From Chlamydiales bacterium (GTDB lineage: Bacteria; Chlamydiota; Chlamydiia; Chlamydiales; JAAKFR01): DNA of 64,000 nt. The notes under the pieces are model-generated. The model saw only the letters and a list, made by a program, of their open reading frames with translations. It had not been told where the DNA came from and did not search any database. The stretch's first letter is position 1. The number at the start of each line of letters is the position of its first letter. This document shows, piece by piece, positions 10,386-58,681 of the stretch. Position numbers and translations under genes: made by a program. The DNA lies in contig JAJACG010000032.1 of assembly GCA_022601635.1 (NCBI GenBank), positions 8,024-72,023 on the forward strand. Reading direction: 5' to 3'.

Positions 10386-11516
10386 TCACCAGCGCATTAG
10401 AGACTTTAACACTGATGAAAAATTGTCGATGTTGTGGTAGTTCAGGTAGTGTTGCTGCATCTTCTCTAATTTGTCTAACACCTTTTGATTGTCTGCTAGC
10501 TTGGCGATCTGCTCGATCGAAGTGAAGTCAACGATGAGTTCGCTTAGGTTGTGCTTTTCAAGCTCTGCTGCCATCCATGTTCCCTCTCTTACGACTGCAA
10601 TCTTTCCAGCTGAGATCGCCTCTACAAAGGGGCCGGAGGTGCGGGATGCATAGGCATTGGCATCATAGGGAAGTAGCAAGATATCGCTTTTTGCAAGCTG
10701 TTCAACATATTGCTCGCGCGTTAGCTCTGGCAGGTAGTTGATGCCAGGTGCTTTGAGATTGCCTGCAATGGGAGCATTTTGTGCTAGCTGTAAGATGGTG
10801 GCAATCCCCTTTTCTAAACGAGGAGGGCCTGGCCACCAAAAAGTTGGATTTTTGCTACTAACAGGTTTGGCTTTGATAGCCGTTGTGTGAGGAATGGGAA
10901 GTACATTTTGGCTGATTCGCTCACTATCAGAGACAATGGTAACACCACGCCAGCGAAGCAGTCGTTTCAATACTGTTTCGATATCCCGTTTTTCCGGAAA
11001 ACGGAAGAGCAGAATAAGCCGATCCCCTCTTTTTAGAAAGAGTGATGCCATTGCAATCGCCATCAGCTCTCGTAAAGGAATGGTTTCAAGAAAAAAGGTA
11101 GCCCTTTCCTTTGACTTATAGAAAAGGCGAACATAGTCAAAAAAGCGACCAGCTACACTTCGAGCGAGAGTTGGCACCCATGGTTTCTTAGTACTCTTTT
11201 CCTTAGAGAGATACTGAATAACTCGGTTATTAGAGATTCTGCCAAGATTTGTGACGTTGGGAAATTCGGAGCCTGACGCTAACCCCTTGTGGGTTAGTGA
11301 AGGCGAGAATGATGCAGCGGCGTGAAGATTGGCGGAAGATTCAATGAGCGAGTTATTCAGTGTCTCCCTAAGAGTAAGCCCTACAAATTGCATGCCTAGC
11401 AGTTCACATGCATTAGCCAGCTGGCCTTGATAGGCAAGTCCATGACCCATCTCAAAATCGTAGGGGATCAAAGAGTAAAACTTTTCTTTGGACACTACAT
11501 TATCCCTTCTTGGCAA
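10386..11516 (-). CDS. Glycosyltransferase-like protein (GT-B C-terminal half) carrying a 57-codon in-frame insertion of a palindromic repeat element
   Basis: 376 aa. The C-terminal ILLLPYDANAYASRTSGPFVEAISAGKIAVVREGTW resembles the GT1/GT4 donor-binding region. Residues 49-105 are encoded by repeat copy 11202..11372. It could be a tolerated insertion or a young pseudogene. Confidence 0.6.
   Translation of the reverse strand: MPRRDNVVSKEKFYSLIPYDFEMGHGLAYQGQLANACELLGMQFVGLTLRETLNNSLIESSANLHAAASFSPSLTHKGLASGSEFPNVTNLGRISNNRVIQYLSKEKSTKKPWVPTLARSVAGRFFDYVRLFYKSKERATFFLETIPLRELMAIAMASLFLKRGDRLILLFRFPEKRDIETVLKRLLRWRGVTIVSDSERISQNVLPIPHTTAIKAKPVSSKNPTFWWPGPPRLEKGIATILQLAQNAPIAGNLKAPGINYLPELTREQYVEQLAKSDILLLPYDANAYASRTSGPFVEAISAGKIAVVREGTWMAAELEKHNLSELIVDFTSIEQIAKLADNQKVLDKLEKMQQHYLNYHNIDNFSSVLKSLMRW
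11202..11372 (+). mobile_element. Palindromic MITE-like element, full-length copy A (171 bp), intragenic and in frame
   Basis: Terminal inverted repeats are CTTAGAGAGATACTGAATAACTCG and CGAGTTATTCAGTGTCTCCCTAAG. The core GGGAAATTCGGAGCCTGACGCTAACCCCTTGTGGGTTAG is shared with the copies at 18418 and 50005. Confidence 0.85.
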
Positions 11517-15195: not shown

Positions 15196-15237
15196 TATAG
15201 AGATACTGAATAACCGAGTTATTCAGTGTTTCCCTAA
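15196..15237 (+). repeat. Internally deleted mini-copy B of the palindromic element (termini only)
   Basis: TTATAGAGATACTGAATAAC-CG-AGTTATTCAGTGTTTCCCTAA forms a hairpin with a perfect 10-bp stem. It ends 15 nt before the murA ATG. Confidence 0.7.
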
Positions 15238-18417: not shown

Positions 18418-18587
18418 CTATAGGAAACCCTGAATAACTCGGTTGTTGGAGGTTCTGCCAAGATTTGCGACGCTGGGAAATTCGGAGCCTGGCACTAACC
18501 CCTTGCGGGTTAGTAAGGTCGAAAATGACACCGAATCGAAAATTGTGAAGGAAGATGCCGACGGGAGTTAATCAGGGCTTCCATAAG
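18418..18587 (+). mobile_element. Palindromic MITE-like element, full-length copy C (170 bp), intergenic
   Basis: CTATAGGAAACCCTGAATAACTCGG ... CGGGAGTTAATCAGGGCTTCCATAAG, with the shared core GGGAAATTCGGAGCCTGGCACTAACCCCTTGCGGGTTAG. It lies between the sulfotransferase gene and argS. Confidence 0.85.
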
Positions 18588-18650
18588 GACCATTTTAACA
18601 TATGTGTTAAAACAGGCCAGACCAAACTAACATATATGTTAGAATGGTCC
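18587..18650 (-). terminator. AT-rich 24-nt-arm inverted repeat abutting the argS stop codon (candidate 3' stem-loop)
   Basis: GGACCATTTTAACATATGTGTTAA ... CTAACATATATGTTAGAATGGTCC matches at 21 of 24 positions with a 16-nt loop. There is no clear U-tract. Confidence 0.4.
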
Positions 18651-30284: not shown

Positions 30285-30728
30285 TTAGATAACCTCTGAC
30301 TGAGGCATCTGCTTCTTCTCTAAATACTCGTTACGGTAACGCTCAATCTCATCCGTATGAATGACCCAAGCCGCTCCCTTACGCGTACCCTTAATCATAC
30401 CCGTACGCGTCGCATAATAAATCTTCTGCGCCGGTACACTCAACTTCTGCGCTACCTGATTAACAGAGAAATAACCCCTCTCATTGTCAAACAGTAACTC
30501 ACCGTCAAACATCGACTTCTTACGCGAATACTTGTTGCGACGATACTCTTCCAAATCCTTGAGATCAATCTCCCAACGACTCTTCTTAGTCGCCCTCAAC
30601 TTCTTCTGCTTAATCGCAACATAAATCGCCTGGCGAGTCACATTGTTGATCTTAGCAGCCTCCGTAATCGAAACAACCTTCTTCTCCTCTTGGAGCGGCG
30701 CTTCTACCTGGTTTACTTGCTCTTCCAT
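30285..30728 (-). CDS. euo: EUO, the chlamydial early-phase repressor of late genes
   Basis: 147 aa. ITEAAKINNVTRQAIYVAIKQKKLRATKKSRWEIDLKDLEEYRRNKYSRKKS...GELLFDNERGYFSVNQVAQKL...YYATRTG...GAAWVIH...EIERY closely matches the EUO sequence as I remember it from Chlamydia spp. Confidence 0.9.
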   Translation of the reverse strand: MEEQVNQVEAPLQEEKKVVSITEAAKINNVTRQAIYVAIKQKKLRATKKSRWEIDLKDLEEYRRNKYSRKKSMFDGELLFDNERGYFSVNQVAQKLSVPAQKIYYATRTGMIKGTRKGAAWVIHTDEIERYRNEYLEKKQMPQSEVI

Positions 30729-34913: not shown

Positions 34914-36020
34914 ATGGACCGAAAACACTTCCTAGATCAAATCCAGCGCTATTTCAAAACACATCCTGTTGTTGCTCTACTCGGCCCGCGACAGTGTGGC
35001 AAAACCACTTTAGCCAAGCTTTTCGCCTCTTCCAAGGCTCACTTCTTTGATTTAGAAGATCCAGCTGATCGCGCCGCTCTAGAAAACCCAAAGGCTGTAC
35101 TTGAACCTCTTGAAGGGTTGATTGTCCTCGATGAGATCCAGCGTACACCAGCTCTTTTTGAGCTTCTTAGGGTTCTAGTCGATCAGAAAAAGAGGAGACA
35201 GTTCCTCATCTTGGGCAGCGCATCGAGGGATTTGATTCAGCAATCCTCTGAGACCTTAGCAGGCCGCATCGCCTACTTAGAACTGACACCATTCACGAAC
35301 TTTGAGGTACCAAATCGCGATCGTTTATGGCTAAGAGGAGGCTTTCCAAATTCATATCTGGCTCATGCAAACCAGGATAGCTATTTTTGGCGTAAGCAAT
35401 ATATTGCTACTTTTTTGGAAAGAGATATTCCTAATCTTGGAATTAAGATCGCACCCCCTGCTCTTCGTCGCTTCTGGATAATGCTGGCACACTACCATGG
35501 ACAAACCTTTAATGCCTCGGAACTTGGGAGCTCACTAGCCATTTCTGATAAGACGATGCGCCACTACCTAGATATTTTGACAGGCACCTTTATGGTACGG
35601 CAGCTCCTACCTTGGATTGAGAATATCAAGAAAAGGCAGGTCAAGCGTCCAAAGACCTATATTCGAGACAGCGGTATCTTTCACACTTTGATGGGGATAG
35701 AGGATCGATCTGCACTACTGCGCCATCCCAAGCTGGGAGCTTCGTGGGAAGGTTTTGCCTTAGAAGAGGTGATCCGCAGCCTCGATGTCTCCGCTGAAGA
35801 CTGTTACTACTGGGGCATCCACAACCAGGCTGAGCTTGATCTACTCGTGATGTATAACGGGAAACGACTAGGCTTTGAGTTCAAATATAGCGATGCACCG
35901 AAAAAAACAAGTTCTATGGAAATTGCATTGGAAACACTGCAACTGGATGAACTAACTGTCATATATCCAGGGACAAAGAGCTATTCCTTGGGCCCTAAGA
36001 TGTTTGTTGATCCGCTTTGA
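34914..36020 (+). CDS. AAA+ ATPase with a C-terminal DUF4143-type domain (COG1373-like)
   Basis: 368 aa with Walker A LLGPRQCGKTTLAK and Walker B LIVLDEIQ. The C-terminal half (KRPKTYIRDSGIFHTL...WEGFALEEV...ELDLLV) is typical of the DUF4143 family. Confidence 0.8.
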   Translation: MDRKHFLDQIQRYFKTHPVVALLGPRQCGKTTLAKLFASSKAHFFDLEDPADRAALENPKAVLEPLEGLIVLDEIQRTPALFELLRVLVDQKKRRQFLILGSASRDLIQQSSETLAGRIAYLELTPFTNFEVPNRDRLWLRGGFPNSYLAHANQDSYFWRKQYIATFLERDIPNLGIKIAPPALRRFWIMLAHYHGQTFNASELGSSLAISDKTMRHYLDILTGTFMVRQLLPWIENIKKRQVKRPKTYIRDSGIFHTLMGIEDRSALLRHPKLGASWEGFALEEVIRSLDVSAEDCYYWGIHNQAELDLLVMYNGKRLGFEFKYSDAPKKTSSMEIALETLQLDELTVIYPGTKSYSLGPKMFVDPL

Positions 36021-43413: not shown

Positions 43414-43473
43414 CTTAGGGAGACACTGAATAACTCGCTCATTGAATCTTCGATCAATCTTCGCGCCGCTGCG
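43414..43473 (-). repeat. Truncated half-copy D of the palindromic element (inverted orientation)
   Basis: CTTAGGGAGACACTGAATAACTCGCTCATTGAATCTTCGATCAATCTTCGCGCCGCTGCG is the reverse complement of the right third of copy A. It fills the gap between the convergent 944-aa and Fic genes. Confidence 0.7.
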
Positions 43474-43474
43474 A

Positions 43475-44830
43475 TTAGACCCATTTTTTCTTCCACAATT
43501 CATATTCAGATAGACGTAGACGGTATCGTGCAATATTTCCCTCGTGTAAACCTTTTAGCTCGATTTCGACTTTCTCAATAAATTGAGATTGATCTCTTTC
43601 AGCCACCGACTGTTTAGCGATCGATTTTATCGTGCTAACAGCATCTGTTTTATTCATCTCTTTCTTTACGACAGTAGACACAGCTTCAAAGATCACCTCC
43701 CTATAGCGCAGACGGAAAGGGTCGGGGTCACCAAGGGTTTGACGCGTTGCTGAGTATAGTGCGCAAGAACGCTCATATGCCCATATAAATACATCTCTAA
43801 GCAGGTCGATCTGATTTAGCTCATACACAGCTAAAAGTCCCTCGATATAGGTTTTTTGTGGAACATCTGCAAATGACAAGGGAGATAGGTTATGTCTAAT
43901 AAGCGGTATATTTGCTGCCAGTCGAGAAACACGTTTGTTTACGTCTTCAAAGGGTTGTAAATAAGGAAGGTGAACCATAAGAAAGAAAGCTTGCTCAAAG
44001 GGATTTTGAATTGCCTGGGCTGTGTGAAGCAGCTGTTCAAAACACTCTTTGATCACATTTGGGACAGCAAGAGGATGATAAACAGACTTGGCTATTCCGA
44101 TTATTTTTGACCGGAGACTTCCACACGCTTTCGGATCTGCAAGTAAATTATCTGAAAGCAGAGCATGGATATTCAACACCGTTTGTTTATTGATATCTAC
44201 TTGATCTGCAGAATCAACCAGAAATTCGATAGCCGCTTTATGATTTAATATCATTTGAGTTTCTGCCAAGTTTTTTCCAGCAGCAGCAGCATCTAACTCA
44301 AGTAACCTCTCCGTTTCAAGAAGAGAATAGGTATTCCCCTCTAGTCTACTAGAATTCCACGATAGATCAATCAGGATGCGATTAAAAATCTCCCGTGCAT
44401 AAGTGCCGGCTGGACGCTCTTCATCAATTCCTCCCAGGACAAGAAATTTATCACAAATTGTCTTTGGTAGATATGAAGTAACATTCGGTCGATATCGGTC
44501 TAAGAACGTCCTGTCATATCCAACAGGGGTGCGTGCTTGTATAGGCTGTTCGACTAAGCTTTGGAGATGCTTAGAGTTAGAGGTTAAAGGAATACTATAC
44601 TCTTCGATACTCTTCTTTTCTTCAGGCAGTGCATACTTTCTGGCACGAGATACCCCCACCACAACAATACGTCCATGCTCAACTAGAAGGGCCAAACGTC
44701 TCTGCAAGCTACGGCGTGGACATTGTATTTCTGGTGAACTCAGGAGCTCCCGTAGCGAGGCCCCACCCGGGTAAAGCCTAAGCACCCCAATCAAAGCTTC
44801 AAACTCCTCTTCTGGAACCTTTTTTGGCAC
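43475..44830 (-). CDS. Fic-domain protein with an N-terminal winged-helix region, an internal inhibitory motif and a degenerate active-site motif
   Basis: ORF 43475..44893. The Fic-motif position reads QPFEDVNKRVSRL, versus the canonical HPFx(D/E)GNGRxxR. SSRLEGN matches the (S/T)xxxE(G/N) auto-inhibition motif. The start is reassigned to GTG 44830, which follows AAGGAG; the track's N-terminal 21 codons translate the operator repeats. Confidence 0.8.
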   Translation of the reverse strand: MPKKVPEEEFEALIGVLRLYPGGASLRELLSSPEIQCPRRSLQRRLALLVEHGRIVVVGVSRARKYALPEEKKSIEEYSIPLTSNSKHLQSLVEQPIQARTPVGYDRTFLDRYRPNVTSYLPKTICDKFLVLGGIDEERPAGTYAREIFNRILIDLSWNSSRLEGNTYSLLETERLLELDAAAAGKNLAETQMILNHKAAIEFLVDSADQVDINKQTVLNIHALLSDNLLADPKACGSLRSKIIGIAKSVYHPLAVPNVIKECFEQLLHTAQAIQNPFEQAFFLMVHLPYLQPFEDVNKRVSRLAANIPLIRHNLSPLSFADVPQKTYIEGLLAVYELNQIDLLRDVFIWAYERSCALYSATRQTLGDPDPFRLRYREVIFEAVSTVVKKEMNKTDAVSTIKSIAKQSVAERDQSQFIEKVEIELKGLHEGNIARYRLRLSEYELWKKKWV

Positions 44831-44840
44831 AGACACTCCT

Positions 44841-44920
44841 TTTTGTGTCACAATAAGGCTTATTGTGTCACAAAAAGCCTTTTTGTGACACAAAAATCAG
44901 TATTGCGACATAAAAAGCAG
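44841..44920 (-). promoter_or_regulatory. Four 20-bp tandem units, each carrying an 11-bp palindrome TTGTG(T/A)CACAA; candidate operator array of the Fic gene
   Basis: The cores are at 44843..44853 (TTGTGTCACAA), 44863..44873 (TTGTGTCACAA), 44883..44893 (TTGTGACACAA) and 44903..44913 (TTGCGACATAA). The spacing is exactly 20 bp, and the array lies immediately upstream of the SD. Confidence 0.6.
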
Positions 44921-49644: not shown

Positions 49645-49972
49645 AGCTCATAAACTACCTCTGTGATTACTCCTGTTTTATCAACAGTTGCGGCGGTTCC
49701 GACGTGGATGACACGGCATGGCTTTGAGGTAATTTTGAGGATTATTAACAATCCGGCGCAGAATGCGATGAAGATATTTATTTTTTCGGCTGTGGTGATT
49801 GTGCTACCGGTGACGGGCACTTGCTACGGCATCAAGAAGCTCTATGAGAGGCATTTTCCGGAGTAGAAGCTGCTGTACCTTATATCTTAACAATTTTACC
49901 TTGAAAATTCGAGAAGCTGTTTGGCGATATTCAAGGATAGCTCTTTCGAAATTTCCAGAATTGATTGTAGTG

Positions 49973-50010
49973 AAAGATGCTGAACGGCAGTTGTTCAGTG
50001 TCTTCTTAAG
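49973..50010 (+). repeat. Mini-copy E1 of the palindromic element (termini only), abutting the full copy E2
   Basis: AAAGATGCTGAACGGCAGTTGTTCAGTGTCTTCTTAAG is a degenerate left end plus an intact right end. It shares CTTAAG with the left end of E2. Confidence 0.55.
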
Positions 50011-50176
50011 GAGATACTGAATAAGTACCTTGCCAGAGATTTTGGTAAGATTTCTATCGAGGGGAAGTTCGGAGCCGAACGTCTAACCCCTTGTGGGTTA
50101 GTCGAGGCGAGAACGATGCCTCGATAGAAAGATTGTCGGAAGATCTGGTGAACGAGTTATTCAGTGTCTTCTTAAG
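50005..50176 (+). mobile_element. Palindromic MITE-like element, full-length copy E2 (172 bp), intergenic
   Basis: CTTAAGGAGATACTGAATAAG ... CGAGTTATTCAGTGTCTTCTTAAG. The internal arms are TTTCTATCGAGG / CCTCGATAGAAA and the central hairpin is CTAACCCCTTGTGGGTTAG. Confidence 0.85.
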
Positions 50177-50179
50177 TAT

Positions 50180-50203
50180 GCGGATGCGCCGAAGCGCACC
50201 CGC
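50180..50203 (-). terminator. GC-rich stem-loop with a UUCG tetraloop downstream of the MOMP-like gene
   Basis: The minus-strand RNA would read GCGGGUGCGC-UUCG-GCGCAUCCGC, which is 10 bp including one G-U pair. It lies 34 nt after the stop. There is no U-tract, so it may be a stabiliser rather than a terminator. Confidence 0.45.
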
Positions 50204-50236
50204 TCTATGGCTGTCTGCTTTCTGACAGGGTTACGG

Positions 50237-51238
50237 TTAGAAGCGGACTTGGCCGACGAGACTCATTTCCAAAGAGGAGGCGAAGCCACCTTCAAGAGTC
50301 AAAGCCATTTTCTGGCAGTCAGTCAAACTCACACCCACGGCATACCCAGTCGATTTGATCTGCTTAAAGTTTGGCAGATTTGCATTAAAGGTGGTAGTAA
50401 CACGGTCAACACCAGTAGTAGCAAGCGAAGGTGTAGGCACATTTGCTAGCTGAGCATTACCGCATTTTAGCTTGGCACCACTCCAACGAATCGCAGCATA
50501 GGGAACAAGCTTGTTAATGCGGTGTGAAATACCAAGACCGACCTGCCAATCTTCGTAGCGCACACGGTATCCATTACCAAATGCCTGGCGAAAATCTCTC
50601 GTAGTTATGACATTGTTGACGGTCACATTTTGATTCTGGTAGAGATCCAAGAACTTCAGATGAGGCCTACTTTGCAGATATTGCCCCTCAAGCCCAATCG
50701 CAGTGCACTCACACTCCCAAAGAGTGATACGCCCACCAATACTCCACGAAAACCCAGTATTAGTCTGCAGATGAGAGAGCACTTGCCCAGAAGCTGTGGT
50801 ACCAAATGTGGTGGTAGTTACCACGGGTGCAGTAGTAGGTCCAGTCGTATCTTGAAAGACAGAGTGGCCGGGATATAGAATCTGGTCACTCCATAGGTTG
50901 ACAGATGTAGCACCAAGTGTTCCAAAGATGTCAAAGCGATCCCAGAAATTGCCAGCAAAGTAGGCAGCATTGGTAATCACACGCGTCACATCGGTATCTC
51001 GCTTCGCTTCACTCGCAGAATCTTTTTCCAAATAGCGGTTAAACTGGTAGTCACCCCAATAACCGAAGCGCATGCTAAAAGCATCGCAAACAGTCAGACA
51101 GGGATCACAGGGATCACCGCAGTGTCCTTCGAAAAAGATTCCATCACAGAGAAGGCTTGCCTCACTTGGGTTACCAACTGGAAGTGCCCAAACAGCACTC
51201 TGAAGGGCTAAGGTTAAAAGTAGATATCGTGTTTTCAA
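50237..51238 (-). CDS. MOMP-like (chlamydial major outer membrane protein/OmpA-family) porin
   Basis: 333 aa with a TTG start after AAGGAG. ALPVGNPSEASLLCDGIFFEGHCGDPCDPCLTVCDAFSMRFGYWGDYQFNR parallels the MOMP N-terminus (LPVGNPAEPSL..DG..WEG..GDPCDPC..WCDAISMR.GYYGD), and the protein ends with a C-terminal Phe. Confidence 0.85.
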   Translation of the reverse strand: MKTRYLLLTLALQSAVWALPVGNPSEASLLCDGIFFEGHCGDPCDPCLTVCDAFSMRFGYWGDYQFNRYLEKDSASEAKRDTDVTRVITNAAYFAGNFWDRFDIFGTLGATSVNLWSDQILYPGHSVFQDTTGPTTAPVVTTTTFGTTASGQVLSHLQTNTGFSWSIGGRITLWECECTAIGLEGQYLQSRPHLKFLDLYQNQNVTVNNVITTRDFRQAFGNGYRVRYEDWQVGLGISHRINKLVPYAAIRWSGAKLKCGNAQLANVPTPSLATTGVDRVTTTFNANLPNFKQIKSTGYAVGVSLTDCQKMALTLEGGFASSLEMSLVGQVRF

Positions 51239-58603: not shown

Positions 58604-58681
58604 GCTATTTCAGTATCTCCTATAGGAGATACTGAATAATACAGAAGATTCAATGAGCGCGTTATTCAGTGGATCCTAAAG
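58604..58681 (+). repeat. Palindromic-element remnants F: a right-end fragment joined head-to-tail to an internally deleted copy
   Basis: GCTATTTCAGTATCTCCTATAG | GAGATACTGAATAATACAGAAGATTCAATGAGCGCGTTATTCAGTGGATCCTAAAG. The junction TTCAGTATCTCCTATAGGAGATACTGAA is a perfect 28-bp palindrome. Confidence 0.65.

Follow-up and report, generated by a model that had tools for sequence, protein, structure and literature searches.

A palindromic MITE family with a strand-asymmetric hairpin, probably mobilised in trans, in a Chlamydiales genome and its relatives

Short palindromic repeats recur along a 64,000-nt stretch (the window) of a Chlamydiales bacterium genome (assembly GCA_022601635.1, contig JAJACG010000032.1), and the place where a truncated and a full copy meet near position 50,005 raises the question of what kind of element this is and how it moves. 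Protein search assigned the window to a Chlamydiales metagenome-assembled genome (MAG) with S4CHLAM81 locus tags. An earlier note, made from the sequence letters, had described a dispersed, non-autonomous palindromic family resembling either MITEs (miniature inverted-repeat transposable elements) or REPINs. Our analysis upholds the first likeness and not the second, as the element has terminal inverted repeats (TIRs) and a variable target duplication and lacks a GTAG or CGTC head. We consider it probable that the element is a transposon-derived, non-autonomous MITE and not a REPIN, mobilised in trans by a DDE transposase encoded elsewhere. The family is genuine, abundant and undescribed as far as the literature was searched, and that search gave no account of MITEs or such elements in Chlamydiota. 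Classical chlamydiae are described as nearly repeat-free in the Waddlia genome paper (PMC2878342).

Ends, target duplications and the mobilising enzyme

The element spans 161 bp (range 160-162) from one TIR tip to the other; tips were placed by anchoring on the conserved CTGAATAA / TTATTCAG motifs and counting seven bases outward. Both ends carry inverted repeats of roughly 17-24 bp that begin GGAGAYACTGAATAAC... (longer form, GGAGAYACTGAATAAC(TCG)), in keeping with the ~24-bp inverted termini reported earlier. The three full copies given in the earlier note are real, but their length of 170-172 bp was overstated because it included the 4-bp duplicated target on each side and one flanking base. 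The terminal motif GAGAYACTGAATAAC, with up to 3 mismatches, occurs 13 times in the window against 2.8 expected (0 of 100 shuffles reached 13). The element has no coding capacity of its own, its sole open frame being a read-through without an independent start signal. Just outside the tips, 12 of the 24 copies scored have an exact 4-bp direct repeat of an AT-rich 4-mer: TTAA around 50010-50171 in the window; TTTA (twice), ATAA and TCAA in contig L029 and TTTG in contig L032, both from the same or a near-identical organism; and AAAA, TAAA, TTAT, TTTA, TCAA and TTAT in LOGT_bin.0132 (LOGT), another Chlamydiota MAG. When either side was shifted by 1-4 bases, 0-1 matches in 24 were left, and permuted partners gave a mean of 1.5 matches, with 0 of 10,000 permutations reaching 12. 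The TIRs together with the exact 4-bp duplication point to a transposon-derived, non-autonomous element, which shares with MITEs a length below ~500 bp without a transposase gene, TIRs, a target duplication of fixed length and many dispersed copies. A TA duplication (the IS630/Correia type) and a CTTAAG target were both dropped in favour of the 4-bp duplication.

We further examined which enzyme might mobilise the element. Pfam scans of ~55 open reading frames (ORFs) in the window revealed no transposase or integrase domain and no Y1_Tnp, in agreement with the earlier statement that neither the element nor the window encodes a transposase. Nothing was found with tblastn of the E. coli IS5 protein InsH against the window and the fetched loci, a solitary TIR-pair scan of the LOGT loci returned MITEs alone, and the extra repeat around three Parachlamydiales copies comprises ~100 nt only, with no insertion sequence (IS). 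The likeness to IS5 consists of the 4-bp duplication and of ends that start GG/GA with ...GAATAA...; the IS5 ends read from E. coli K-12 (GGAAGGTGCGAATAAG) match the window TIR at 9 of 16 positions and the LOGT TIR at 11 of 16. As no matching autonomous partner was found, the enzyme family is a guess, and the duplication length and end sequence give a tentative lead towards an IS5-like enzyme as the best one. Three observations weigh against the transposon reading. The window and ~300 kb of related loci (55 other fetched loci) contain no autonomous partner with matching ends; the targets (TTTA, ATAA, TCAA, TTTG, AAAA, TTAT and others) are mostly not the YTAR of IS5; and the duplication is exact in only one of five window copies, the others matching at 1-3 of 4 positions, as expected if these copies are old.

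On the transposon reading, the element integrates at an AT-rich 4-bp target that becomes duplicated, as the flanking repeats demonstrate, and would move in trans through a DDE-type transposase from elsewhere, for which an IS5-like enzyme is the best guess. The junction near 50,005 runs from the fragment end (...CAGTGTCTTC) through TTAA into the full copy (GGAGATACTG... to ...CAGTGTCTTC) and again into TTAA. The hexamer CTTAAG, which the earlier note had seen shared between a mini and a full copy and tentatively ascribed to nested or adjacent insertion at a preferred target, is composed of one TTAA (50006-50009) between the last base of the left fragment and the base with which the full copy begins; the preferred-target proposal is supported, with a single TTAA duplication common to both neighbours. 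The same order of end, single 4-mer and end recurs at 58621-58624 (TATA), in L029 (TTTA, three in a row) and in L029 at ~1650 (TCAA). The simplest reading is that one preferred 4-mer, restored beside each resident copy, is used for insertion again, and repeated hits of this kind would yield head-to-tail arrays sharing a single 4-mer, as at 49964-50175. Copies then decay through internal deletion (giving minis), truncation and recombination at the apex.

Hairpin, strand asymmetry and conserved tip

The full copies at 11202, 18418 and 50005 each fold as RNA into a single long stem-loop, with minimum free energies of -89.6, -60.3 and -88.8 kcal/mol (z = -13.0, -3.5 and -10.8 against dinucleotide shuffles), and all three retain an unbroken apex CTAACCC-CTTGY-GGGTTAG, so the earlier description of one long stem-loop capped by a conserved hairpin proved correct. 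Of the 61 pairs in the consensus structure, 35 show compensatory double changes. Paired cells make up 94.1%; column shuffles gave 81.2%, with 0 of 500 as high as the real alignment, and slid partners gave 38-51%. This pairing is unequal between the strands. The CTTGY-loop strand has 97 G:T cells against 13 A:C cells, and this top strand outfolds its complement in 28 of 28 chlamydial copies, by a margin that amounts to 20-40 kcal/mol for the families of the window and of LOGT. For copy 3, RNA parameters give -88.8 kcal/mol for the top and -59.9 kcal/mol for the bottom strand; with DNA parameters the values are -36.1 and -29.8 kcal/mol, and the gap shrinks to ~6 kcal/mol. The asymmetry argues that a double-stranded cruciform is insufficient and that a single-stranded form of one strand is selected. 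A genome-wide mutation bias would give the opposite wobble pattern, which makes selection the likelier cause.

The tip of the hairpin was followed with an exact-match scan of the 19-nt apex through species-representative genomes, a collection outside which the window genome lies. The scan returned 27 loci, 25 of them in Chlamydiota MAGs: 12 in LOGT (one 1.8-Mb contig, CALNYX010000017.1), 6 in Parachlamydiales MFD04780, 5 in Waddliaceae MFD09781, and 1 each in Parachlamydiales MFD00082 and Chlamydiales HK-STAS-VERR_A-1 (HK). At all 25 chlamydial loci the 19-mer forms the tip of an imperfect palindrome of 150-330 nt. Copies from LOGT and HK align end to end with those of the window; arms from Parachlamydiales and Waddliaceae are unalignable with the window family, and a profile hidden Markov model (HMM) built from 15 full copies detects their central ~50 nt only. 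The 19-nt tip is identical in 4-5 Chlamydiota lineages whose arms and TIRs have diverged past alignment. Subfamily B, a second subfamily within the genome of the window organism, has the apex CTAACCA-CTTGC-TGGTTAG, in which a C:G pair of the tip stem has been replaced by A:T, a compensatory change. Below the tip, purine-rich internal loops are kept in all families, and on paper these can be drawn as tandem G:A pairs.

Orientation was compared with local base composition. The element is oriented opposite to the sign of the local GC skew at 19 of 25 loci. Along the LOGT contig, 5 of 6 copies between ~0.27 and 1.2 Mb are "+" and all 6 elsewhere are "-", tracking the skew, and L029 (skew +0.022) follows the same rule with all five pieces "-". 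The better-folding strand therefore tends to be the C-rich strand, i.e., the leading-strand template. The switch along the LOGT contig suggests a replichore-linked orientation, and the bias might, tentatively, arise because a highly stable hairpin is avoided on the lagging-strand template. Orientation following transcription was ruled out by the flanking genes, which run the same way in ~9 cases and the opposite way in ~10.

Together, these findings incline us, with rather modest conviction, to the view that a folded single strand of the CTTGY strand is under selection, RNA from that orientation being its likeliest form and the tip a recognition module for a conserved factor. With similar reserve, the hairpin and tip appear to be kept for the spread of the element or for its tolerance by the host, through the single-stranded form. 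On the CTTGY strand only, the unit is maintained as a single long hairpin, with G:U(T) wobbles tolerated and A:C mismatches not, and the 7-bp tip stem, CTTGY loop and purine-rich internal-loop region are conserved in different chlamydial lineages. Several results count on the other side. G:T wobbles are also tolerated in single-stranded DNA (ssDNA), which leaves room for an ssDNA stage; the identity of the tip across lineages was ascertained by an exact-match search that is blind to diverged tips; a promoter scan inside two copies detected no sigma-70-like promoter; flanking genes run either way irrespective of how the element is oriented; and the correlation with GC skew comes from noisy 8-kb windows, with p roughly 0.01-0.04.

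The alternative that survives best, although we regard it as unlikely, is a functional structured RNA, either a small RNA or a cis-acting mRNA element (e.g., an RNase III or stability module), whose apex would be the active part and whose transposon ends would be a mere vehicle or an exapted carrier. Extensive covariation with strong G:U asymmetry would fit such an RNA, as would the retention of the tip and GA-rich internal loops across lineages while arms and TIRs diverge, and a strand gap that is far wider under RNA energy parameters than under those for DNA. However, no Rfam family matches the elements: the whole window searched at the gathering threshold gave tRNA-Leu only, and a search at E up to 10 over 49900-50250 gave chance microRNA-like matches only. 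There is also no promoter-like site inside, the elements point randomly relative to the genes beside them, one copy lies within a coding sequence, and decay, truncation and nesting affect many copies, as is typical of selfish DNA.

Among the features that go beyond a plain MITE are the strand-specific, covarying hairpin and a tip conserved above the TIRs. A quite unlikely proposal is that the tip (7-bp stem, CTTGY loop and tandem-GA-like internal loops) is a module recognised in trans that chlamydial MITEs must keep, and that the element acts or moves as a folded single strand. This could take two forms, which jointly have the same low probability: a hairpin-dependent transposition that still makes 4-bp duplications, or an RNA exploited by the host (an RNase III substrate or protein-binding rod) that shapes expression at hundreds of loci. 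Such recognition would explain why the tip is conserved above the TIRs, why wobbles fall on one strand and why orientation follows the replichore.

Mobilisation as an ssDNA hairpin, in the manner of REP/REPIN-RAYT or IS200/IS605-derived (PATE) elements whose folded strand is read at the fork by a Y1 HUH transposase, is very improbable. It would draw on the strand-asymmetric hairpin, the correlation of orientation with GC skew, the failure to find a DDE transposase and an apex hairpin that could serve as the recognition site. Yet families of this type have neither TIRs nor a target duplication, both of which are clear here; the consensus has no GTAG or CGTC head, and the window no Y1_Tnp domain; and the better-folding strand lies on the C-rich leading-strand template, opposite to the prediction from IS608-type elements.

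Copies in the window and in other genomes

A repeat search located the window copies of this single family: 3 full copies, 2 minis consisting of TIRs only and 3 fragments (Table 1), with no full copy beyond these three detected by the HMM in the window. All copies listed in the earlier note exist, as repeat search and direct reading of the sequence established, including the right-end remnant placed at ~58604..58625 and the opposite-orientation half copy at 43414..43473, which the HMM confirmed as a minus-strand right arm. Two of its three internally deleted minis stand (15196-15237, 35 bp; 58620-58681, 52 bp), whereas the third (49973-50010) is mainly a right-end fragment that matches HMM positions 125-171 at a weak E = 0.03, its left end being merely degenerate. 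The HMM also recovers a right-end piece at 58644-58681.

Table 1. Copies and fragments of the element in the 64,000-nt window
Feature	Position	Strand	Details
Full copy 1	11207..11367 (tract 11202-11372)	+	161 bp; + strand is the better-folding "top" strand
Apex of copy 1, CTAACCC-CTTGT-GGGTTAG	11279..11297	+	
Mini	15199..15233		35 bp: left TIR, 3 nt, right TIR; flanks TTAT / CTAA
Full copy 2	18423..18582 (tract 18418-~18588)	+	160 bp; apex 18495-18513; flanks TATA / ATAA
Half copy, right arm only	43419..43473 (HMM 43473-43414)	-	Stops 16 nt short of apex
Right-end fragment or very degenerate mini	49964..50005	+	Directly upstream of copy 3
Shared TTAA target duplication	50006..50009		Between fragment and copy 3
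Full copy 3	50010..50171 (tract 50005-50176)	+	162 bp; apex 50083-50101; exact TTAA repeat at 50172-50175
Right-end remnant	58605..58620	+	Followed by TATA (58621-58624), then next mini
Mini	58625..58676	+	52 bp: ~20 nt left end and ~32 nt right arm; flanks TATA / TAAA

The copies are scattered among genes for ribosomal proteins S12, S7 and S10, EF-G, murA, argS, gltX, secDF, recJ and a prfB-like protein. Copy 1 is flanked by the 4-mers TTAG (11203-11206) and CTAA (11368-11371). Copy 2, the most decayed of the full copies, lies between a sulfotransferase-like ORF and argS. Between this copy and the 3' end of argS we also observed a perfect palindrome at 18587-18650 with a 23-bp stem (GGACCATTTTAACATATGTGTTA...TAACATATATGTTAGAATGGTCC, -32 kcal/mol), which is single-copy across all sequence fetched and may be a terminator. 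The right arm at 43414-43473 shares 93% identity with 11314-11373 in reverse complement and abuts the stop codon (43475) of a Fic-domain gene (43475-44893); upstream of this gene, nested inverted repeats built on TGTGACACAAAAAG at 44836-44920 have an operator-like look. Copy 3 lies downstream of a minus-strand MOMP-like gene (50237-51238), ~60 nt from its 3' end, and the 52-bp mini lies 70 nt upstream of tRNA-Leu(CAA).

Copy 1 lies in frame inside a 376-codon ORF (10386-11516, minus strand) of a conserved glycosyltransferase-like gene. Ten homologues (~330-390 aa) align with its N-terminal 48 and C-terminal 270 residues and all lack the intervening segment, which identifies copy 1 as an insertion, i.e., a polymorphism at the protein level. 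Element plus duplication amount to 161 + 4 = 165 nt, a multiple of three that adds 55 codons. The public annotation of this ORF covers the C-terminal 225 aa only (S4CHLAM81_08810). One bottom-strand frame (peptide ...SFSPSLTHKGLAS...) is stop-free in all 11 indel-free copies of alignment A2, which comprises the full-length window, LOGT and HK copies; under random substitution the expectation of a stop-free frame is 0.2-0.5 per copy, and the copies share ancestry. These observations could be read as those of an element like the Rickettsia palindromic elements (RPEs), with protein-coding genes as its main niche, selected for translatability and adding a tolerated peptide, and the N- and C-terminal parts of the interrupted gene do still align. 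We hold this to be highly improbable, since only 1 of ~20 copies examined is genic, a search of the 57-residue insertion-spanning peptide against 5.8 billion proteins returned nothing but two short ORFs called over other copies, and retention of the open frame is only modestly unlikely, in copies that share ancestry. An origin as duplicated-gene fragments or an assembly artefact, for which the open frame in some copies is the sole argument, has a negligible chance and is refuted by the scatter of copies among unrelated housekeeping genes, their defined ends and duplications, their presence in several genomes and their recovery in independent assemblies (ENA, NCBI, Logan).

We further surveyed copies outside the window. 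Contigs L029 and L032 were reached through two small ORFs, P0105 (= S4CHLAM81_01140) and P0106, that had wrongly been called over copies of the element; the two contigs contain ~7 more full copies in 40 kb: a tandem pair, two further copies and one fragment in L029 (20 kb), and three copies plus fragments in L032 (20 kb). Over the 104 kb of the three contigs this amounts to ~10 full copies and ~7 partial ones, a density of ~1 full copy per 10 kb and one element-derived sequence per ~6 kb. With these copies and with relatives in other Chlamydiota MAGs, the earlier expectation of a dispersed family with further copies was realised. An empty-site check at the argS locus found every other assembly filled, and a distant blastn of the element against a plasmid collection gave no match. 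At 14756-14924 of L032 we observed a chimera in which two "left arms" meet at the apex and whose flanking 4-mers differ. One of its arms belongs to subfamily B, and the other is a left arm of the 50005 type in reverse complement; the chimera looks like a recombination or inversion scar between oppositely oriented copies at the palindromic tip.

TIRs related to those of the window are present in the LOGT, Parachlamydiales and Waddliaceae families. The Waddliaceae-type relative is ~330 nt long, with the TIR AGTCGGCCCTGAAAAAG and exact repeats AAAT, ACTT and AAGT, and the Parachlamydiales type has the TIR GAGGTRCTTGCA and exact repeats TAAA, TTTA and ATTA. The Waddliaceae-type element (L001, L011, L012, L015, L024 and L039) is asymmetric, its left arm carrying ~130 nt more, and L001 holds two neighbouring copies of it. 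Several contigs of the Waddliaceae MAG stop inside or beside the element, which indicates that it breaks assembly. Three loci of Parachlamydiales MFD04780 (L006, L017 and L018) have ~80 nt of extra left and ~20 nt of extra right flank in common, and there the MITE is therefore embedded in, or was propagated with, another short repeat.

Apex scans of metagenomes and viruses yielded three more chlamydial-type copies and unrelated carriers of the 19-mer (Clostridiales-1 RNA and others). An identical 19-nt hairpin, CTAACCCCTTGTGGGTTAG, lies in the first stem-loop of a multi-copy element that matches the Rfam family Clostridiales-1 RNA (RF01699), at loci from the metagenome "R14" and "R05" contigs (L034, L036-L038, L040, L043, L044, L047, L048, L051 and L053). 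This RF01699-matching element often lies just after terminator-like hairpins and is otherwise unrelated to the chlamydial one, and sharing of the 19-mer is probably a coincidence around the CUUG loop. Assignment of the chlamydial element to Clostridiales-1 was rejected, as RF01699 matches the unrelated metagenome loci only.

Known systems and the wider window

The element behaves in the manner of IS-derived MITEs and of the Correia, ERIC and RPE repeats. Among these known systems, MITEs of the IS5-family type are likewise small, non-coding and multi-copy, with TIRs, a 4-bp duplication and internally deleted and nested derivatives. Unlike IS-derived MITEs, the chlamydial element has no cognate IS that we found and uses AT-rich targets that are not YTAR; its interior is wholly a covarying, strand-asymmetric hairpin, and its centre is conserved above its TIRs. 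The Correia elements of Neisseria (CREE/NEMIS) resemble it in size (~100-160 bp), in their ~25-bp TIRs, in having full and internally deleted forms, in very high copy number in a host-restricted bacterium and in a central module, which in Correia is an IHF site. Correia transcripts fold into hairpins that are substrates of RNase III. However, Correia elements duplicate TA instead of 4 bp, belong to a different phylum, show no apparent sequence similarity and lack the long covarying stem and conserved apical stem-loop.

ERIC/IRU elements of Enterobacteriaceae are imperfect palindromes of ~127 bp that occur in shorter and longer variants, with pairing conserved as if under an RNA-level constraint, and to our knowledge no mobilising enzyme has been identified for them. 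They differ in lacking a clear TIR and duplication and in their confinement to transcribed intergenic regions, whereas here duplications are clear and one copy is intragenic. RPEs are also palindromic (~100-150 bp), reside in an obligate intracellular host and have in-frame genic copies that leave the gene undestroyed; we know of no transposase for them. They are set apart by another phylum, by the probably unrelated sequence of the RPE-1 to RPE-8 families and by the clear TIRs and 4-bp duplication of the chlamydial element, in which genic insertion is exceptional (1 of ~20). REPIN and REP-RAYT elements are similarly hairpin-forming and non-autonomous, with a stem kept by compensatory changes, but REP units are 20-40 nt long with a head and an associated RAYT gene. 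The chlamydial element does not conform to this: it has TIRs and a duplication, no GTAG/CGTC head, no RAYT gene seen, and 161 bp in one continuous stem. PATEs carry a subterminal hairpin at each end, no TIR or duplication and a fixed 4-5-mer, in contrast to the one continuous hairpin, TIRs and variable duplication found here.

At one copy per 6-10 kb, the family would make up a few per cent of the genome. Short-read assemblies would break at its copies, as seen in L057 and the contigs of the Waddliaceae MAG; the family would also supply inversion sites (the L032 chimera) and can remodel proteins (the 55-codon in-frame insert). With its consensus, annotators can mask small ORFs that are spurious (S4CHLAM81_01140) and rejoin genes that were split (S4CHLAM81_08810). 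A tip conserved above the transposase-binding ends, together with a strand-specific hairpin, presents a selfish element whose constraint at the level of the single strand can be put to a clean test, in hosts that are hard to manipulate genetically.

Elsewhere, the window has a GC content of 47% and encodes the Chlamydia-specific outer-membrane proteins Chlam_OMP and Chlam_OMP6. A different kind of repetition occurs at 62541-62774, where three tandem 78-nt repeats (92-100% identical) lie within an ORF without a Pfam match (61352-63256) and encode an acidic 26-residue repeat. Amid the housekeeping genes we also observed an HTH_17 (excisionase/AlpA-like) ORF at 30285-30728 and a DUF4143/AAA_14 ATPase ORF at 34914-36020, which may be leftovers of another mobile element.

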